Part shown: positions 5,248 through 43,338 of the stretch, piece by piece
Layout: each line of letters starts with the position of its first letter
Numbering within the stretch: position 1 is the stretch's first letter
Assembly (NCBI GenBank): GCA_963745075.1
Contig: CAVUWV010000010.1
Location: 96,001 to 160,000 of the forward strand
DNA length: 64,000 bases
Direction: 5' to 3'
Origin: Candidatus Hydrogenedentota bacterium
GTDB taxonomy: Bacteria > Hydrogenedentota > Hydrogenedentia > Hydrogenedentales > SLHB01
Made by a program: the position numbers and the translations under genes
The notes under the pieces: model-generated
The model's input: the letters and a program-made list of their open reading frames with translations, nothing else
Database searches by the model: none
Told to the model about the DNA's origin: nothing

Positions 5248-6233
5248 TTAAACGACGGATCCAGCAACTCCTTCGCGATGACGGCTCCGATTTCGTACTT
5301 GGATAAACACAAAATACAGGGTCCCGGCCAGAATGGCTTTTCCGATATCTCCGGTCAGTAATCCTGTGCTAAACCGCAGTGGACTTTGAAGCAGGTATTC
5401 CAGGCTGGGAAAGAGACCTTGTGACATCGCCACGTCGACAAGATGGCGCATGGAAAAAACCGCGAATGCGAAGAGTACCGTGCTCAGGATCACCCACGTT
5501 GCCAGGGAAATCAGCACCGAGCGAGTACGGCGCGGAGGCCGATCCATCCACCAAATCCAGAGCAAGGGCCAACCTAGCGACGCGATCCACATACCATACG
5601 AGAAGAACGGACCGCCCGATCCATTCAACCGTTGAACCGGCTCCGAGAAGTCCGCTGGATTCATCTGGGGCGAGGGTACAGACGCGTACGTCACCAACAG
5701 TGCGACAGTGATCAGTGCTTGGCGCGCTAGGCTCCAACGCAGAATCTGCGTCCTTCTTCCGTCGTCCAACCAGCGTTGCCAGCGAAACAACACGTACCAT
5801 GCGATGGCCACTCCCAACACCATTGCGAAACCACCGCGCACGACAAAGATCAGAAGCAGCGCAACAACGTCCGATCCGGTCACGGTCGCTACCGCGGCTG
5901 CTCCCACTACTCCGACTGTAATCACGAGATAGACTGCCACGGAGACCATACTGACCGCCGCCAGCCGTTGTGCGACCGACAGGAGACGTTCTCCGCGATG
6001 AACGGCCCCGAGGAAGTCGCGCAACGCGCGCGGATCGCCAAAATGCTCCCGCGTCAGAAGCACCACGTCGGGCTGCGATAAGGACTCTTCGCCCGACAGG
6101 TACCCAATCGCCTTGTCTTCCATATGGCCGAACAACTCTTCCTGGATCTCTCATCCAGGTCGTGCGCCACACTCATTTCCCGCGCCAGATTCCTTAGCGC
6201 CGCCTCAGTTTCCGGACTCAGTTGCTTATCCAT
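5248..6233 (-). CDS. Multi-pass membrane protein with N-terminal PadR-partner domain, copy 1; -1 frameshift near 6150
   Basis: ATG at 6233 overlaps the padR stop and gives MDKQLSPETEAALRNLAREMSVAHDLDE. It then shifts into the 5248..6135 ORF (FGHMEDKAIGYLSGEE...LLTREHFGDP plus TM helices). Confidence 0.75.
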
Positions 6234-27140: not shown

Positions 27141-30100
27141 TCATGGAACCGCGGTCATGCTTACCGGGATTCCGAGAACGTTGCCTCCATTGGACAACAC
27201 GTCGATGGTGGTGTTTACCGTGGCGCCGGTCGCAACGGCGGTGGGATCCACCGTGACAAAGACCGTGTCCACTTCAGTTGTCGTGGATCCGGACGACGCC
27301 ACGATGGATTCGATCCACGCGGGCAATCCGTCTGTCGGGATCTGCCAGTTCATGGTGCTTTGGCCGGTGTTCTGGATGGTGAAGGTCGCCATTTGCGATC
27401 CGCCGGCCTGCGACACGTTGCCGAAGGCCAAATTAGCCGTATCGTTGACGGTAAGTTCCGGGGGCCGGATTTGGATGCGCATCATCACCGGAATGGTGCC
27501 GAAAACGCCCAGTGTTCCGGTGGAATAGCGGATGCTCAACACACTGTTGTATGTGCCCGCGGCGATCGTGCGATCCACCAGCACGACCAGCGTGTCAATC
27601 GAGGTGGTCGTGTTCAACGTACCCTCATCCGGAGTCACACTTCCCACGAAGATCGGAATATCTTCCACGCTCCATTCCAGATAGACCTGGTTAACCGGGC
27701 CGTAGGGATACGTGCCACCGATGTTGCGGACATTTATCGTGGTGTCGTTCGTGCCGGTTCCGAAGTCGATTACCACCGGATCGACGAACGGCGTTGGAAG
27801 CGCGGGCGCCAGGAACGGATCCCCATCCACGTCGATGGCATCCGGAAAGATGAAATACTTCGGCTCGGGATCGCCGGCGTAAATCGTATTGTCGACGTCC
27901 AGGTCTACTGTGAAGGGACCGCCGACCCCAGCGAAGTCCAGACGGACGAGATCGCCGAAGGTACCGTAAGGCAGTACGTCAGCGGGAGTGGGGGCGGACA
28001 GGTTGTACGTGCCAACGCCCAGCGGGGTCAGCGTCCATCCCGAGACCGCGCCGCCCTCGTCCAACGGGACGATGGAGACCGTCGGGGCCGGGCCGGTTGA
28101 ACTCACAGTAAACTCGATCTGGTTGATGTTGCGCGGGGCGTAATCGAGCCGCAACGTCACCTGCGAGGCGCCACCGACGATACCCGGCGTCCGCATCGAG
28201 ATTTGGCCCATGCGGATGTCGCCTACGACGGTCGAGAGATCGACATTTTGTTCGTCCAGTGTCCCCTGAACGATTCCCTGGTCGGGGTTGTCATAGGGAT
28301 TGTCGAGCGCGCCGTCGAAACGAAGCGGCACATTTTCTTCCTCGTTCAGCGACACGTAGCTCAGGACCGTGTGGGAGGCGAGGTCCGTATTGCATTCGTC
28401 CACCTTATCCATGAAGTTTGCGACAACCGGATCGCCGTTCGAGTCCAATTGGCTCAGATAGTAGTGACCGCCGGTTCCGCTGGCAAGGCGCGCCATGGGT
28501 TCGTGGTTCACATCCACGCCCCAACCCAGGGAGAAGATCTGCACCTTGAGCGCGATGAGATAGTCGATGGTGTCCTGGATCTCGCCGGGCGGCGTTGTGA
28601 GGCGCCCGTCCGAGAACATCGCCACCGCCCGGATATCCGCGTCGTCGAAGGGAAGCAGCGGGAAATCCTGTTGCGCCAACTCGTTCCCCGCTTCCTCGAC
28701 AGCGGGTAGAATCGCGGACGCACCATGATCGGTCACGTTGATGTTCTGCAATGCGGCGTGCAAGGTTGCCCGGTCGTCTGTAAAGTCCTGAATCACGGAT
28801 GCCGGCGCATTGCGATCGTGGAACTCCATGATCGCCATTTGAGCGAATCCGCGTTCGACGTTGGCGAACAGATCGAAGAAGTTGTCGATGAACTGCCCCC
28901 CCGTGGTTTCATATAAGGTCTGCACGTCGGTGCCAACGGATGCCGCCGCGTTGGCGACACTTCCCGAGTAGTCGAGCAGCAAGACGACCTTCGTGCGTAA
29001 ATCCATGCGGTAATCGGATAACGGTTCGGTAACGGTGCTGTTCTGAAGCAGGAGAACTTGCGAGGTTTCCGCGGGTTGCTCGATCTGCTCGCCATCTTCG
29101 AAAATCCGGTATGCGCCGGTGAGGAGTTCCGGCGCCATCACGAACGACTGGTCGTGGATGTCGCGCATGAGGAAACTCCAGCGCACCATCGACGGTATGC
29201 GGGTCCGTGCGATTGCGGTGTGGAAGGACAGCGGCGTCGCCTCCACGGAAATCGTCACCTCGGCCGGTTCCACGTCCGGCCGGATGTTGCCCAGCGAATC
29301 CAGCGCGTACACGGTGAACGTGCCGGTGGCCCCGGTGCTTTCCAGAAGGCTGCGGTCGATCGATACGTTGATCGGCTGGAAGTCTTTGATCGGGCTGCTG
29401 GTCCCGATGCTGGTTCCCGTCGACGGACTGTGGAACAGCCAGATCCGATCGCTGACCACGAGGAAGTTCAGTACGGTTCCCGGATCGCCAATGTTGGCGA
29501 CGAAGAATGTTGCGGTATTCCCGGACAATCCGAAGTCCAGGTTGTCCGGCGACACACCGATGACGGGACGGAGCGGCACTTGGATGGTGACATCCAGCGT
29601 GCGGGTTCCGCCGTTCGACGTAACCGGGATATAGGCAACGTAACCGCCGGGCGCCAGTGTCGAACGATCGACGGTGATCGTCAGGTTGGTGAATTGCCCG
29701 TTGATATTGGAACCCGCCACCGGCGCAATAGTCAGCCAGGTCGGGAACGAGTTCGGATCGATGTTCCAATTCAATGTGCCCGTGCCAATATTCTCAATGG
29801 TGAAGCCGTACGTCGTGGCCGTATCGCCAAGGGGGGCCAAGGGCTGCCCGCTGCTGTTGACGAAACCGGTATCGACGCTCAATATGGGCACTTCGGCGAC
29901 TGTCAGGTTGACGGTGACATCCACGTCACCCGCGTTGCTGGTGACCGGGAACGTGAACGTGTGAACGCCCACGGAGAGCCCGGTCCGGTCAACCATGAGA
30001 ATGACGGACTGCGTATCCGTCGTTACGCTACCGTTCGTCGGGACGGGCGATACCACGCTCAACCAACTCGGGAACGTCCCCGTGTTCACACTCCAGTTGA

Positions 30101-37333: not shown

Positions 37334-37349
37334 AGCAAATGCTATGCCA
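37334..37349 (-). promoter_or_regulatory. sigma54 promoter of amtB-glnK
   Basis: Minus strand TGGCATAGCATTTGCT, with an AT-rich tract immediately upstream. Confidence 0.85.
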
Positions 37350-37420
37350 ACAATCTATGTAGGCGAGAGGAATAAGCAATAAGATATTAGTAGATATGCA
37401 CTTAAATGGAAAATTCTATG

Positions 37421-37468
37421 TTTACGAGTCGGTAGGTCGGTTTGGGTATTCCTACCATCCGGTAGGAA
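37421..37468. promoter_or_regulatory. Candidate upstream activator sites (CCTACC-N4-GGTAGG)
   Basis: Perfect TTCCTACC-ATCC-GGTAGGAA at 37449-37468 and degenerate TTTACG-AGTC-GGTAGG at 37421-37436. Confidence 0.7.
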
Positions 37469-37522
37469 GGGCTGGGGCGCGTCCCTACGCGCCGGTAACC
37501 TTTTCGGCGCGGGCGCCTCTCA

Positions 37523-38503
37523 CTACCCGGTCGAGCGGTAATTCCGGGGTTCGATTCCGTACTTGCGAACGCGTAACCCCATAAGCCGCTCGGTGATGCC
37601 CAATTGCTGCGCCGCTCTGGAGCGGTTTCCGTTCGACGCGCGCAACGCATCGATAATCAGCGTGCGTTCCACGGATTCGAGCGTGGCGGGCAGGGAATCC
37701 TCCGTTACGGAAACCGCCGGTTCTGTTTGCTGTACCGGTGGCGGAAGGTGTTCCAGCTCGATCGTGTCCGACGTGCAGAGCATTACGGCGTGTTCGATAC
37801 AACGGTCGAGTTCGGTCAGGTTTCCCGGCCAGGTGTACTCCAGCAGAAGGCTGGCCACGCGGGAGGACAACCGCTGAATCGGTTTTTCGGCCGCTTCCGC
37901 GTATCGGCGTAAGAAGTGTTGCGCCAGCAGCAGGATGTCCGTTTTACGTTCGCGGAGTGGCGGTATCCGGATGGTAACGATCGTCAGTTCGTCGCAGAAG
38001 TCTTTAAGAAACCGGCCGTCTTCGATCAGGCGATCCAACTCGCGCCGGCTGGCGGCGATGACCCGGACGTCGGCCGGTTGTGGCGAATTTGCCCCCGGCT
38101 TCATGAACGAGCGCTCTCGAATGCACCGCATAAGCTTGGCCTGCATCGCTAAGCTGAAATCGCCGATTTCTTCGATGAATAAGGTGCCGCCTTCCGCTTC
38201 TTCGATCTTGCCCTGCGGCGGAACCGACCCGTGCGCAGCCGATGCGGCGCCGAAGAGTTCGCCTTCGACAAACGACTCCGTTACTTCCGGCCAACGGACC
38301 GTCACGAACGGATTGTGCGCACGTGCACTTAGATTGTGGATGGCACGCGCGATCGCCTCCGCGCCGGTCCCGCGCTCACTGCGCAGAAGCACCGCGACGT
38401 TGCCGCGCGCCACGTGCGTCGCCAGGCTGTAGACCTGTTCCATGGCAGGAGAGCGCTCGACCCGGTCAAAGCGGTCTATCTCGTCATCCCGGAAAGCGTT
38501 CAT
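37523..38503 (-). CDS. sigma54 activator-like protein with degenerate AAA+ motifs and intact Fis-type HTH (pseudo-ATPase)
   Basis: 326 aa from ATG 38503, colinear with the AAA+/HTH part of 38826..40415 but with the catalytic motifs altered. It has no sensory domain. Confidence 0.85.
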   Translation of the reverse strand: MNAFRDDEIDRFDRVERSPAMEQVYSLATHVARGNVAVLLRSERGTGAEAIARAIHNLSARAHNPFVTVRWPEVTESFVEGELFGAASAAHGSVPPQGKIEEAEGGTLFIEEIGDFSLAMQAKLMRCIRERSFMKPGANSPQPADVRVIAASRRELDRLIEDGRFLKDFCDELTIVTIRIPPLRERKTDILLLAQHFLRRYAEAAEKPIQRLSSRVASLLLEYTWPGNLTELDRCIEHAVMLCTSDTIELEHLPPPVQQTEPAVSVTEDSLPATLESVERTLIIDALRASNGNRSRAAQQLGITERLMGLRVRKYGIEPRNYRSTG

Positions 38504-38526
38504 ATAGAAACTCCGGGAGGGGGGAG

Positions 38527-38542
38527 AGCAACGGGCGTGCCA
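38527..38542 (-). promoter_or_regulatory. sigma54 promoter of the pseudo-ATPase gene
   Basis: Minus strand TGGCACGCCCGTTGCT is a consensus match, 23 nt upstream of the ATG. Confidence 0.85.
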
Positions 38543-38678
38543 ACTCGGGTTGAGTTGAACCGGTCGCGCGCGGGGCGAACTTTGAGGCTGTATCAACTTC
38601 TTTCGGGAATTGGACTTAGAAGGTCCTCGCCAGATGAACGGTTGGGTTTCAGAGCGGTATGACTCGGATTCAAGCGAG

Positions 38679-38694
38679 CCTACCAAATTGTAGG
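38679..38694. promoter_or_regulatory. Candidate upstream activator site
   Basis: CCTACC-AAAT-TGTAGG, about 137 bp upstream of the -24 element. Confidence 0.65.
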
Positions 38695-38766
38695 GAGTCC
38701 GGGGGATTCCAACCAGCACGTACGAACGAATGCGGTGAGAAGCCTGCGGAAAACCGCGCTTTCATT

Positions 38767-38811
38767 GTCCGTACTTGTCCGTGCAGGTCCGTGTCAGTCC
38801 GGGTAAGGTCG
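38767..38811. repeat. 10-bp-period GTCCG(T) repeat
   Basis: tgtccgtact tgtccgtgca ggtccgtgtc agtccgggta. Confidence 0.55.
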
Positions 38812-38825
38812 ATTTGCCCCCGGTC

Positions 38826-40415
38826 TTACACCAGTCGGGCTGTGCGGTATTGGCGCGGGTTAATATTGTGCTTCCGCACCCGGAGCCCCATGATTCGCTC
38901 GGTAATCCCAGCGACTTCCGCCGCCTTGGCTTTGTTGCCGCGGGAGTTTTTCAGCGCTTCAATCAGCATCTCCCGTTCCACGTTGTCCAATGTGGCTTCG
39001 AGCGTCTCTTTCATGATGGTGCCCGAGGCTTCCGCCGTCTGCAGGGTGGGGGGGAGGTGATGTCCGTGGACCACGTCGTCATTGCTCAGCAACACGGCGC
39101 GTTCGATGCAGTTTTCCAATTCGCGAACGTTGCCGGGCCAATGGTAGCTCGACAGCATGTCGATAGCGGGGGTCGAGATCCGGCGAATGTCTTTTCCGGC
39201 GGACTTGCTGGCTTTCTCGACGAAGTGGTTGGCCAAGTCGAGGATGTCCGCCCGGCGTTCACGGAGCGGCGGGATGTGGATGGGAAACACGTTCAGGCGA
39301 TAGTACAGATCCTGCCGGAACGTTTCGTCTTCCATGAGGGTTTCCAGTTCCCGATTGGTCGCGGCGATGATCCGCACGTCTACCTTGATGGTTTCGGTGC
39401 CGCCGACCCGTTCAAACTCGCGTTCCTGCAGGACCCGCAGCAACCGGATCTGCATCGTCGGTGCGAGATCCCCGATTTCATCCAGGAAGATCGTGCCGCC
39501 ATCAGCCAGTTCGAATCGTCCTTTGCGCTGCTGCAACGCGTTAGTGAAGGCGCCTTTCTCATGGCCGAAGAGTTCACTCTCGATTATGGACTCCGGCAGG
39601 GCCGCGCAATTCACTTTCACGAAGGGCTTGGAGGCCCGCAGGCTGTTGTAGTGGATCGCGCTGGCCACCAGCTCTTTGCCCACGCCGCTTTCGCCGCGGA
39701 TCAGCACGGTCGCGTCGCTCTTGGCCACTTGTCCGATCAGGTCGAAGACCTTCTGCATGGCGTTCGAACGGCCGATGATGTTCGCCGGACGGAATCGATC
39801 TTTCAACTCGTTTTGCAGCCGGAGATTCTCTTCGCGCAGCCGCTGCTGCTCTTCCATGGCGGACTGGCGCAGGCGCACCGCTTGCGCGATCATCGACGCG
39901 ATAATCGAAAGGAGGCGAATGTCTTCGTCCAACGAAACCGGACCCGAAAACAGGCGGTCGACGCTCAGCGCCCCGATGGTCTCATTGCCCAACTTGATGG
40001 GCACACAGATGAAGGAGACTTCGTCCTTCTTGACCTTTTGCCGGGCGCCCGTTTTGTCTAGAAAAGTCGGCTCGTCGGAGATGCGCGGAATCGCCACGGC
40101 GCGTCCCGTTTCCACCACCATCCCGGTGACGCCTTCGCCCCTCCGGTAGTGGCCGCGTTCCCGCTGGCTTTCCGACAGCCCGTGCGCCGCCTCGATGAAC
40201 AGTTCTCCGGTGTCGCGGTTCAACAGCGTGAGGGTACCGCGCACCATTCCCGTGTTGTTGGCGATGGCTTTTAAGAGGGTGCCGACCTCGTCGCGCAAGT
40301 CCAGGCTGCGGTCCAGGGTCTGGCTGATCTCGAAGAGCAGGGACAACTCGCCGAGATCCTTCTTGATATCCGGACCCGTCCGTCGGCGGTGAACCTTCGT
40401 TTTTGTCTGTGACAT
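38826..40415 (-). CDS. NifA-like GAF-AAA+-HTH sigma54-dependent activator
   Basis: GAF domain ([14 protein letters not shown]), [41 protein letters not shown] and an HTH. Confidence 0.93.
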
Positions 40416-40456
40416 GATGCAAATCTACCCGAAATGTAAGTAGCTGGCTACGGAAA

Positions 40457-40493
40457 CGTACCATATGGTAGGATTCTGATTCGGCAATGTCAA
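40457..40493 (-). promoter_or_regulatory. sigma70-type promoter of the activator, with the operator overlapping -10
   Basis: TTGACA(40493-88)-17-TACCAT(40470-65). CGTACC-ATAT-GGTAGG (40457-40472) covers the -10. Confidence 0.7.
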
Positions 40494-40697
40494 GTGGGAC
40501 GATTCACTGATCGGCATTGCGCTCTTCCCGGTACTTGGTCACGGCCGTCGAAAGATGAAATCCATTTCCGCTATCATCTCGGTAACCGGCTCAGCGGAGA
40601 TCTCGCAGCCCACGGGACGATCGATCTTCCCCGTCGCGTGCACGCGTTCTACTGTGCCATATGTCTGTTTTTCCGACGATCGACACAAGGAAGACCA

Positions 40698-43151
40698 ATG
40701 ACTTTTCACTCAGGTGTTTCGCGTTCGACCTTACTGTGCGGGCTGCTTGCGGTTAGTTTGTTGTCCTCCCCAATCGCCGATGCCGAAGACCCCATCGATC
40801 TGACGCAATGCGCTGTCCTTTCCGAGACCGCAACGCCGGTTGTTACAAAAGCGAGTGAGATGTTGATCGAAGAGATCGGCGAACGCACCGGGTTGCATCT
40901 GCCCGCCGTCACGACGATCGATCGGGATGCCCCCGCGATCGTCCTCAGCACGGAGGATGGATTGTCCGTACCCGTGCCGGTCTATCCCGAAGGGATAACC
41001 GTGCCGGAGCGCGCGGATGGGTACGCGCTGTGGCTTGACAACGACGGACCCGCTCCCCGCGTGTACGTCGTCGGTCATGACGCGCGCGGCGTGTTATTCG
41101 GCGTGGGACGTCTTCTGCGGACACTGCAGATGCGGGATGGGGAGATCGCGTTGGATCCCACGTTTCGGATTGCCACCGCGCCTCACGATCGGATTCGGGG
41201 TCATCAACTGGGCTATCGCGCTGCCAACAACACGATCGACGCCTGGAACGTTGCCCGGTTCGAGCAGTACATCCGCGACCTCATCGTTTTCGGCGCCAAC
41301 TGTATCGAATTGATTCCCGACTTCGACCGGGGCCCCAAGGACAGCCCGCACATGCCCTTGACGACCTCCGAGATGAACCGGCAATTGTGCGGCATCATCT
41401 CGTTATACGGACTGGATGTCTGGAGCTGGCATGCGCTGCACGGCGATGTGTCCGACGAGTCTGTAGCAAAAGCGGAATTGGAGCGCAGCCGACGCGACTT
41501 CGCGGATCTTCCGGAACTCGACGCGGTATTCGTGCCGAGCGGCGATCCCGGTGAGACTCCGGCCGACAAGTTGTTACCGTTCCTCGCGCGATTCGCGGGG
41601 GTCCTTCACGAAGTGCACCCGGACGCCGAACTCTGGGTGTCGACGCAAGGGTTTACCGACGAGGAGAACGAGTATTTCTTTCACTACCTTGCGACGGAAC
41701 AACCAGACTGGCTGACCGGCGTGGTTTTCGGCCCCTGGGCCAAGTTGACTCTGCGGGAACTGCGCCAGCGCATCCCGCAGCAATACCCGGTGCGTTCCTA
41801 TCCCGACATCACCCATACTGTGCGCTGTCAGTATCCCGTCCCCCACTGGGATCGCGCGTTTGCCCATACCTTGGGCCGTGAACCGGCCAATCCCCGGCCC
41901 GTGGCGGAGGCGCACATCCATGAACTGGAAACGGATCTGTGCGAAGGATTCATCACCTATTCGGATGGCGTGAACGACGACGTGAACAAGATGATCTGGT
42001 CCGCCTGCGGCTGGGATCCACAGGTGGACGTGCAGGAAGTATTGGAAGACTACAGCCGCTACTTTTTCGGACCGGACTTCGCGGCTGACGGAGCGGCGGG
42101 GTTGCTCGCCGAGGAGAACAACTGGAAGGGTCCATTGGGGGCCAACAAGGGAGTCGATCGGACGCTGGAGCACTGGCAGGCCATGGAGCACCGCGCCGAC
42201 GCGAAATTGCTCGGCAACTGGCGCTTTCAGCAGGGATTGCTGCGCGCCTACTACGACGCGTACGTCAAGGCCCGTCTCGTGCAAGCGATTGATGCGGAGT
42301 CCCGTGCTTACGCCGAACTGGCCAAAGCGAACGACATCGGCGCCCCCGCGGCACTGGACGCCGCAGATACCGCCCTCGGTATGTACGACGATTTTCCTGC
42401 TGCGCCCGATCTTCGCATGCGTATCGACGAGTTGGGCAAACAACTCTACGAGAGCATCGGCATGCAACTCAGTGTTGAAACGTACGGAGCCAGCGGCAAA
42501 GAGCGGGGCGCCGTGCTGGACGGACTGGATTCGCCGCTTAACGACCGGGCTTGGCTTGAATCGCAGTTTGCCGCACTACGTGCCGAGTCGAAGGCCGAAA
42601 CGCAATTGGCGGGTATCGAACGCCTCGTGAATTGGGAGAAGCCCACGTCCGACGCCTTCTACGATGATTTGGGCAACGGAGAAAAAGAACCACACCTCGT
42701 CTATCAGAAAACGTGGGCGGAAGATCCGGGATTTGTCGAATCGCCTCAGGACGAATTCTCCATGAGCCCGCTCGAACCCCAGGATCCCCTTCAACTCGAA
42801 CCCAAAGCCGAACCCCGGGCATCGAACGTCTCTCCTCCGCGCTTGTCCTGGCTCGATCAGGGGGAAACTTTGTATCGCACCGATTTGCTCATGCGCTACG
42901 AACATCTCGATCCGAAGAAGACTTATACACTGCGCGCGGTCTATGCCGGCCGGTTTCACGCTACCATGAAACTCATGGCCGATGATACGTATGAGGTCCA
43001 TGGGCCCATACCGTACAGCGAGCCCCTCGAAGTGCATGAGTTCCCCATCCCGGCCGACGCGACGAAGGACGGTGTTTTGAACCTGCGCTGGATCGCAGTT
43101 GAAGGAAGGGGACCCCAAGTCGCCGAGGTCTGGCTCGTTCCGAATTCGTAA
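40698..43151 (+). CDS. Secreted hypothetical protein with a GH20/GH67-like N-terminal domain (putative glycoside hydrolase)
   Basis: Signal peptide, then DGYALW...VVGHDARGVLFGVGRLLR and RGHQLGYR. 817 aa from ATG 40698. Confidence 0.6.
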   Translation: MTFHSGVSRSTLLCGLLAVSLLSSPIADAEDPIDLTQCAVLSETATPVVTKASEMLIEEIGERTGLHLPAVTTIDRDAPAIVLSTEDGLSVPVPVYPEGITVPERADGYALWLDNDGPAPRVYVVGHDARGVLFGVGRLLRTLQMRDGEIALDPTFRIATAPHDRIRGHQLGYRAANNTIDAWNVARFEQYIRDLIVFGANCIELIPDFDRGPKDSPHMPLTTSEMNRQLCGIISLYGLDVWSWHALHGDVSDESVAKAELERSRRDFADLPELDAVFVPSGDPGETPADKLLPFLARFAGVLHEVHPDAELWVSTQGFTDEENEYFFHYLATEQPDWLTGVVFGPWAKLTLRELRQRIPQQYPVRSYPDITHTVRCQYPVPHWDRAFAHTLGREPANPRPVAEAHIHELETDLCEGFITYSDGVNDDVNKMIWSACGWDPQVDVQEVLEDYSRYFFGPDFAADGAAGLLAEENNWKGPLGANKGVDRTLEHWQAMEHRADAKLLGNWRFQQGLLRAYYDAYVKARLVQAIDAESRAYAELAKANDIGAPAALDAADTALGMYDDFPAAPDLRMRIDELGKQLYESIGMQLSVETYGASGKERGAVLDGLDSPLNDRAWLESQFAALRAESKAETQLAGIERLVNWEKPTSDAFYDDLGNGEKEPHLVYQKTWAEDPGFVESPQDEFSMSPLEPQDPLQLEPKAEPRASNVSPPRLSWLDQGETLYRTDLLMRYEHLDPKKTYTLRAVYAGRFHATMKLMADDTYEVHGPIPYSEPLEVHEFPIPADATKDGVLNLRWIAVEGRGPQVAEVWLVPNS

Positions 43152-43212
43152 CCGGGGATCGCTGCGAGCATTGTTGCGTGGAATGAACGACGTGCCGCAC
43201 AAATGTTCCAGT

Positions 43213-43283
43213 TCGTAATCGTAATCGTAATCGTAATCGTAATCGTAATCGTAATCGTAATCGCGTAATCGTAATCGTAATCG
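43213..43283. repeat. (TCGTAA)n microsatellite
   Basis: Eight perfect units at 43213-43260, a 2-bp interruption, then about 3 more units. It lies between convergent genes. Confidence 0.95.
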
Positions 43284-43338
43284 AATGCAGAACGAGGCAG
43301 TCTCAACGTTTACCCAATGAGACGTTGCGCTCGTCCTA

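Follow-up and report, generated by a model that had tools for sequence, protein, structure and literature searches.

A conserved, sensor-less and catalytically degenerate twin of a NifA-like activator at an amtB-glnK locus of Hydrogenedentota: a candidate feedback brake on nitrogen control

The window analysed here is a 64,000-nucleotide stretch of contig CAVUWV010000010.1 (positions 96,001 to 160,000, forward strand) from a Candidatus Hydrogenedentota bacterium whose genome, labelled G000, measures 6.8 Mb and is 89.7% complete. Its minus strand carries, in this order, genes for a NifA-like sigma-54 activator and for a shortened copy of that activator, followed by amtB and glnK/PII (Table 1). 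Activators of this class, also called bacterial enhancer-binding proteins (bEBPs), serve as the textbook example of transcriptional control powered by ATP. The shortened copy, which we call the twin, is the subject of this analysis: it is preserved by selection, its catalytic motifs are altered throughout, and it appears to be controlled by the activator that it resembles.

The activator is the twin's closest paralog among the genome's 28 bEBP-like loci (45% identity, runner-up 38%), and BLASTP aligns the two with 145/320 identical residues (E=8e-98). In Pfam, the two proteins have Sigma54_activat, AAA_lid_14 and HTH_8 in common, whereas a GAF domain is seen in the activator only; the twin scores are 1.1e-40 for PF00158 (139.5 bits, against 251.1 for the activator), 6.7e-25 for PF25601 and 1.2e-10 for PF02954. 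Only 15 residues precede the twin's AAA+ core, Pfam shows no N-terminal domain there, and the coiled-coil linker found before the activator's AAA+ domain is missing, making the twin a natural delta-N form. It is therefore an intact, GAF-less copy of the adjacent activator, as the original prediction had described it.

Each of the substitutions listed in that prediction is present. From activator to twin, Walker A changes from GESGVGKE to SERGTGAE, the switch region from VNCAA to VRWPE, the sigma-54-contact loop from GAFTNA to AASAAH, Walker B from FLDEIG to FIEEI (DE to EE), the arginine-finger motif from FRQDLYYRL to FLKDFCDEL, and sensor II from GNVREL to GNLTEL. The recognition helix of the helix-turn-helix (HTH) domain, which reads GITERLMGLRVRK in the twin, is almost unchanged, as had also been noted: one conservative residue separates twin and activator (ITERLMGLRVRK). 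By domain content (PF00158, lid and HTH_8) the twin is a bEBP, but it lacks the Walker A, GAFTGA, Walker B, arginine-finger and sensor II motifs of one. An AlphaFold2 model of the twin, based on an alignment of 30 sequences (mean predicted local distance difference test score 85) has an intact AAA+ fold, a lid and a three-helix HTH; the closest folds are bEBP AAA+ domains, and its best matches among solved structures are ZraR, Brucella NtrX (which is also among the best full-length matches), NtrC1, LuxO and FleQ. Judged by its residues, the twin is unable to hydrolyse ATP or touch sigma-54, and hence unable to activate. We read it as a pseudo-enzyme that still has a function and that arose from the NifA-like nitrogen activator, retaining the AAA+ fold and the parent's DNA-reading helix.

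The twin is not peculiar to this genome. Among the best 150 of 1434 matches, a range that highly divergent twins could escape, full-length GAF-less twins occur in 12 of 135 Hydrogenedentota genomes (G000-G005, G010, G021, G029, G115, G117 and G118), and an activator ortholog is present in nearly all 135. In 11 of the 12, activator and twin stand in direct tandem with the twin on the downstream side; the exception is G010, whose twin has no linkage to the activator and yet still precedes amtB. Seven loci have amtB after the twin (G000, G003, G004, G005, G010, G021 and G029) and three do not (G002, G115 and G117), a count that leaves out G001, where the contig ends, and G118 on its downstream side. 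A word-index protein search added 10 twin clusters to the window's own, and a profile search covering 1.84 billion representatives brought in six others that are more divergent and about 326 aa long (P0133, P0138, P0140, P0146, P0147 and P0150); a metagenome scan for the genomic context of P0138 returned only an unrelated match at 31% identity. In one-genome-per-species records, 9 of 51 confirmed loci are of the twin type. Two twin loci, L037 and L077, are titled "uncultured Nitrospiraceae" but fall in the same genus (that of G005) and the same order (that of G029) as the window, so these titles look mislabelled. Some candidates were set aside: the motifs of P0022, P0050, P0098, P0107 and P0108 are intact, and these proteins resemble truncations or fragments of activators. 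The short matches in G024, G056, G126 and G132 are either other bEBPs or activators cut off by a contig end.

Motif loss across the family is uneven. The GAFTGA loop, the switch Asn and the sensor II Arg are gone from 20/20 twins, and Walker B DE survives in one of the 20, whereas the HTH core TER[LM]MGLRV is retained in all of them. All motifs are present in 10/10 intact NifA-like relatives (counting the window activator's GAFTNA). The original description of the twin as catalytically dead therefore needs one restriction, which is that the Walker A Lys is lost in 11/20 twins and kept in 9/20, the loss being confined to the window's genus-level clade (nine sequences) and the metagenomic P0133 and P0146. 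Other positions are conserved, including fold-defining blocks (GGTLF, IPPLRERK.DIL.LA and WPGN..EL) and residues specific to twins (e.g., ERGT, and Trp71, which replaces a switch-region Cys). In a quick maximum-likelihood tree (46 rows), 21 twins lie on one side of a branch with a Shimodaira-Hasegawa-like approximate likelihood ratio test value of 100; their terminal branches are several-fold longer than those of activators, making long-branch attraction possible, and the tree gives them no definite attachment point within the NifA-like group.

Selection on the twin was gauged with Nei-Gojobori estimates of the ratio of non-synonymous to synonymous substitution rates (dN/dS), calculated per domain for twin and activator orthologs. 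The ranges, which are rough because dS is >1 in most pairs, are 0.07-0.2 overall for the twin versus 0.01-0.06 for the activator, 0.06-0.2 versus 0.01-0.06 for the AAA+ core, 0.05-0.19 versus 0.007-0.10 for the lid and 0.03-0.08 versus 0.02-0.055 for the HTH (G003-G004, a very close pair with few changes, is outside the HTH ranges). The least saturated informative pair, G001-G002, gives 0.069 for the twin and 0.012 for the activator. The twin is thus under purifying selection throughout, with its ATPase part relaxed approximately three- to five-fold and its DNA-binding part unrelaxed. The original prediction had looked to orthologs that might be absent or decaying neutrally; instead, twins are conserved in 12 genomes at a dN/dS of about 0.07-0.2.

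The twin's own consensus sigma-54 promoter and an upstream copy of the palindrome at amtB were both foreseen, and both are present and conserved in alignment. The promoter matches the consensus exactly in 9/12 loci and nearly so in G117 and G029, while the G118 sequence ended before the promoter position. When the spacer between activator and twin is aligned across six genomes (mean identity 43%), the sole invariant islands are the TAC-N6-GTA palindrome, the -24/-12 promoter and the Shine-Dalgarno sequence (SD), and the twin-amtB spacer has the same conservation pattern in four genomes. The palindrome, the twin's predicted upstream activating sequence (UAS), lies about 140 nt upstream of the twin promoter, and within the genus it is consistently one mismatch from the perfect dyad at amtB. 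Nowhere else in the genome is a 12/12 match found than at amtB, and three of the ten best matches (at least 11/12) fall within this 3-kb locus, a clustering that exceeds chance.

One part of the predicted circuit has to be redrawn. The prediction had twin and amtB sharing one operator, but the operators are separate copies, at the twin, at amtB and at the activator's promoter. The palindromes at amtB and the twin stand as described, while the third copy, which lies over the activator's own -10 hexamer, was overlooked and offers a second, simpler route to negative feedback. This sigma-70-type promoter, TTGACA-N17-TACCAT, was found independently by a promoter scan, and its -10 lies within the dyad CCTACCATATGGTACG. 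The overlap recurs in G000, G003, G004, G021 and G029. In G010, the dyad is present without a clear -35. A protein bound at this predicted operator should exclude RNA polymerase.

Table 1. Genes and predicted control elements of the activator-twin-amtB-glnK locus, in window coordinates (a dot marks elements without an assigned strand)
Feature	Position	Strand	Basis or remark
Activator gene sigma-70-type promoter, -35 hexamer TTGACA	40488..40493	-	promoter scan; kept in G003, G004, G021; CTTGCA in G029
Operator copy on activator promoter, CGTACCATATGGTAGG on + strand	40457..40472	.	11/12 dyad match; predicted repression site
Activator promoter -10 hexamer TACCAT, inside operator copy	40470..40465	-	TTGACA-17-TACCAT, 10/12
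NifA-like activator, 529 aa, GAF + sigma-54 AAA+ + lid + HTH_8	38826..40415	-	catalytic motifs all intact; L1 loop GAFTNA
Twin UAS CCTACAATTTGGTAGG; - strand reading CCTACAatttGGTAGG at 38694..38679	38679..38694	.	1 mismatch from perfect dyad
Twin predicted sigma-54 -24/-12 promoter TTGGCACGCCCGTTGCT (TTGGCACgcccgTTGCT at 38543..38527)	38527..38543	-	followed by SD GGAG and ATG at 38503
Twin, pseudo-bEBP without GAF (326 aa): AAA+ core (degenerate), lid, HTH_8	37523..38503	-	motif comparison, Pfam
Second, imperfect palindrome upstream of amtB, TTACCGGCGCGTAGGG	37483..37498	.	kept in 4/4 aligned genomes
Main amtB UAS CCTACCGGATGGTAGG; - strand CCTACCggatGGTAGG at 37466..37451	37451..37466	.	sole perfect dyad in genome
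Conserved half-site ACCTACC upstream of amtB	37431..37437	.	spacer alignment
amtB-glnK predicted sigma-54 -24/-12 promoter TTGGCATAGCATTTGCT (TTGGCATagcatTTGCT at 37350..37334)	37334..37350	-	motif, alignment
amtB, ammonium transporter, 471 aa	35826..37241	-	PF00909, 8e-121
glnK / PII, 113 aa	35450..35791	-	PF00543, 1e-24

The same arrangement of palindrome and promoter occurs elsewhere in the genome. A relaxed palindrome lies 40-300 nt upstream of 7/79 sigma-54-promoter-like sites, compared with about 0.4 expected from its genome density (an arithmetic estimate). Four of the seven sites belong to the twin, amtB-glnK, a second PII-amtB operon (C24 ~318900-321100 of G000, outside the window) and glnA (C34 ~27200-29400, likewise outside), and the remaining three have different or weak dyads. 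Both the second PII-amtB operon and glnA are preceded by a consensus sigma-54 promoter with two to three upstream TAC-N6-GTA-like dyads, and these two units probably complete the activator's regulon.

Other dyads and repeats were also noted. A different dyad, TGTACAAAAATGTACA, occurs twice at C31 ~152574-152700 of G000, upstream of a consensus sigma-54 promoter that precedes an open reading frame of response-regulator type (judged by its N-terminal sequence), and is probably the autoregulated enhancer of another bEBP. At C13:35589 and C36:194353 of G000, short pieces of non-coding DNA hold 11/12 matches to the nitrogen dyad, with no sigma-54 promoter nearby; they are chance matches or sites of another regulator, and the products of the genes beside them resemble long acyl-CoA dehydrogenases. 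In L032 (G010, ~5925-5995), a long inverted repeat, ACGCCTGGGTAGG ... CCTACCCAGGCGT, separates the preceding dockerin/beta-propeller gene from the twin's sigma-54 promoter, and could be a terminator hairpin that also holds a dyad-like CTAC-N6-GTAG.

"NifA-like", the original label for the activator, fits its sequence but not a role in nitrogen fixation. The protein scores 546.9 bits against the NifA model TIGR01817, passing the curated NCBIfam cut-off of 528.85, while the twin scores 231.5 bits and passes no NCBIfam cut-off. The genome contains rpoN (456 bits, over the cut-off), but nifH was not found over its cut-off in this 89.7% complete genome (best 47.8 bits versus 394.35), so the activator is not a nif regulator here. 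Its dyad, CCTACC-N4-GGTAGG (i.e., TAC-N6-GTA), also differs from the NifA UAS, whose consensus is TGT-N10-ACA. In Hydrogenedentota, the part played by NtrC in proteobacteria appears to fall to a NifA-like GAF activator.

Some features of the activator lineage stand apart from the twin. The window's activator has GAFTNA at the loop where the other 29 aligned NifA-like proteins have GAFTGA; this change of Gly to Asn at residue 292 requires two base changes, and the variant may have weaker sigma-54 contact or may be a strain or assembly peculiarity. Four metagenomic proteins of ~500-510 aa (P0174, P0189, P0220 and P0236) are full-length, GAF-containing NifA-like proteins without the GAFTGA loop, some also lacking further motifs, so loss of the activation function in this lineage is not restricted to GAF-less twins. 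In L079, a Planctomycetota metagenome-assembled genome record, the frame of a NifA-like activator is disrupted after the AAA+ core and runs on as nonsense, due to a frameshift or an assembly error.

We put at roughly 50% the probability that the twin is an activator-induced, signal-blind repressor or competitor at operators shared with the activator, exerting negative feedback on the nitrogen response. The mechanism that we infer for its DNA binding, the sign of its effect and its timing would run as follows. Under nitrogen limitation, the activator would bind TAC-N6-GTA palindromes and fire the sigma-54 promoters that drive amtB-glnK, PII-amtB2 and glnA as well as the one that drives the twin, so the twin would be produced only while the activator is active. 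As it accumulates, the twin, which very probably reads the same dyads, would occupy them without activating and would displace the activator from its UASs, the twin's own included. It would also cover the -10 of the activator's sigma-70 promoter, damping both the output and the synthesis of the activator. The twin cannot sense the signal because it has no GAF domain, and the feedback would be independent of the metabolic signal. The single mismatch in the twin's UAS suggests that its induction may come late. What remains of the feedback anti-activator originally proposed is a selected gene with a sigma-54 promoter, a shared palindrome and an HTH kept while the activation residues are gone; the poisoning of hexamers that went with it found no support, and the anti-activator function is read from this architecture.

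Several points weigh against this reading. Its promoters and operators are predictions, and the palindrome is not enriched genome-wide, with 8 strict matches versus ~23 expected from base composition. The twin is patchily distributed (123/135 phylum genomes are without one among the best 150 of 1434 matches), and the dN/dS values carry the roughness noted above. A sequencing-run search turned up two DNA runs with small shares and no RNA run. The twin's AAA+ and lid domains are held under purifying selection across families, whereas a bare HTH would suffice for DNA competition, so some protein-protein or ligand function is left unexplained. The sign of the effect also calls for caution because paralogous bEBP pairs, in the passages cited here, co-activate rather than inhibit, as do VnfA1/VnfA3 (PMC9542535) and HrpR/HrpS (PMC3105312).

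Since operator competition does not explain the selection on the AAA+ shell, there is room for hetero-oligomer poisoning or for another partner. In the poisoning alternative, the twin would act mainly through its AAA+ domain, forming mixed oligomers with the activator that cannot hydrolyse ATP or engage sigma-54, and DNA binding would be mere positioning. The dN/dS of the AAA+ and lid domains (0.06-0.2), the conserved fold-defining blocks and the delta-N form are all consistent with this, and inactive forms of RedR1/RedR2 block the active ones through their central domains, according to the cited part of that report (PMC10084136). However, the inter-subunit arginine fingers are gone from the twin, as are the coiled-coil linker and, in the window's clade, the Walker A Lys. 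The assembly of bEBP rings is usually nucleotide-dependent, which also counts against poisoning, and we consider it unlikely as the main mode of action. A predicted hetero-complex of activator residues 205-529 and the full twin, both given as alignments, weighs neither way (score 0.21, mark 0.32). Alternatively, the twin could be an ordinary DNA-binding regulator of sigma-70 promoters that happens to be sigma-54-induced, possibly with a regulon beyond the activator's. GAFTGA-less bEBP homologs do act at sigma-70 promoters, as the cited passages on VpsR (PMC6158489) and Caulobacter NtrC (10.1101/2023.06.06.543975) describe. One of the operators here sits on a sigma-70 promoter, and the structural match to Brucella NtrX fits as well. 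But the 29 best palindrome matches include no further site beside a recognisable nitrogen gene, and the clearly non-coding matches examined flank unrelated genes and genes that we take to be acyl-CoA-dehydrogenase-like. An extended regulon like that of NAC therefore has no support among the best palindrome matches, and with the twin lacking a sensor domain and, in the window's clade, the Walker A Lys, we rate this explanation as quite unlikely.

The twin might instead aid the activator, as VnfA3, HrpR and FleT aid theirs; it could bend the UAS or mark it in advance, seed the assembly or shield the activator. FleQ and FleT are a co-activating bEBP pair, and the conserved tandem linkage of activator and twin fits such a partnership. 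Most known paralogous bEBP pairs are likewise co-activators (VnfA1/VnfA3 and HrpRS, in the passages cited above). The comparison is weakened by RedR, whose central domains are identical and carry GAFTGA and Walker motifs in the cited part of the report (PMC10084136), while GAFTGA is lost in 20/20 twins. Furthermore, a twin on the same single dyad should exclude the activator, making a helping role improbable. Least probable, with only the slimmest of chances, is a functionless duplicate on its way to being lost. The lost catalytic motifs, the long branches and the patchy distribution (12/135, again among the best 150 of 1434 matches) are what one would see in such a relic. However, the frame is intact in 12/12 genomes and in every metagenomic member, dN/dS is well below 1 in each domain, and the twin-specific residues are conserved along with the promoter, UAS and SD, which together rule out neutral decay.

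The reading of the twin as a feedback competitor can be set against several known systems. NifL-NifA, FleN-FleQ and PspA-PspF also pair a bEBP with a dedicated negative regulator. To our knowledge, however, the known antagonists of sigma-54 activators (NifL, FleN, PspA and HrpV) are proteins unrelated to their targets; NifL, FleN and PspA bind the AAA+ domain, and we know of none that is a paralog of its activator or has its DNA-binding specificity. Shortened paralogs or isoforms that retain the region for DNA binding or dimerisation, have no activating region and antagonise the full protein are familiar from TrlR versus TraR and the LIP isoform of C/EBP-beta, and NAC is a sigma-54-induced second-tier regulator downstream of the nitrogen activator in enterobacteria. 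These differ from the twin in belonging to unrelated families: TrlR loses DNA binding rather than activation, and NAC, which belongs to the LysR proteins, has an operator of its own. Closer in kind are VpsR, Caulobacter and Rhodobacter NtrC, Brucella NtrX and TyrR, bEBP homologs that cannot contact sigma-54 and serve as ordinary DNA-binding regulators. Rhodobacter NtrC and TyrR are GAFTGA-less bEBP-like regulators, and those of the VpsR/NtrX/TyrR type retain an N-terminal sensor and nucleotide binding. Unlike the twin, all of these are stand-alone master regulators, not a sensor-less copy controlled by an intact parent that shares its operator.

Interacting bEBP paralogs form another group of comparisons. 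RedR1 and RedR2 of Aromatoleum anaerobium, in the cited passages, share their target promoters, and one of them induces the other; when either is in an inactive form, the active one is blocked from activating via hetero-oligomers (PMC10084136), an experimental precedent for the silencing of an active bEBP by its inactive paralog. They are 97% identical, with identical and functional central domains, and jointly activate, unlike the 45% identical, sensor-less twin, which would be permanently dead. VnfA1/VnfA3 and HrpR/HrpS are likewise described as paralogs that interact on the same targets and have adjacent or co-regulated genes, but in those pairs both partners are competent ATPases and co-activate. 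PexR of Myxococcus, a GAF-bEBP, uses dyad repeats to activate sigma-54 promoters and also acts as the repressor of a sigma-70 promoter in the passages cited (PMC12754779); this means that bEBP operators can double as repressor sites, although there one protein does both and no dead paralog is involved. MphX (PMC3063778), which represses an XylR-type bEBP, is not a bEBP homolog and was dropped as a precedent.

The original prediction knew of no anti-activator of this kind, and full-text literature searches (with subscription-only papers outside their reach) likewise found no sensor-less, catalytically dead paralog that is under its parent's control and shares its operator; they also found nothing on nitrogen regulation in Hydrogenedentota. 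GAFTGA-less bEBP regulators, interacting bEBP paralogs and unrelated anti-activators are thus known already, and what would be new is the dead, sensor-less paralog under the apparent control of its parent.

If the feedback reading is true, a conserved and selected, activation-dead paralog that acts downstream of its parent and uses its operator is a different solution from an unrelated antagonist, namely negative feedback by a pseudo-enzyme. It would provide a naturally occurring case in which to ask what number of dead subunits or occupied enhancers a bEBP system can bear, and a small component (326 aa and a 16-bp operator) with which sigma-54 circuits could be tuned. The predicted regulon of amtB-glnK, PII-amtB, glnA and the twin also outlines nitrogen control in the uncultured Hydrogenedentota. 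More tentatively, and with clear doubt on our part, the twin family might be the first natural poison subunit of an AAA+ transcription activator, induced by its parent and acting both as an operator competitor and as a former of dead rings; its conserved AAA+ shell might then dock a partner such as GlnK/PII, making an otherwise signal-blind brake nitrogen-responsive. If so, it would show pseudo-enzymes evolving into feedback inhibitors of their parent machines.

Beyond the activator's end of the locus, an 885-aa open reading frame (40494-43151) is followed just downstream by a hexanucleotide-type simple repeat at ~43150-43310, whose frames read DYDYDY or ITITIT.

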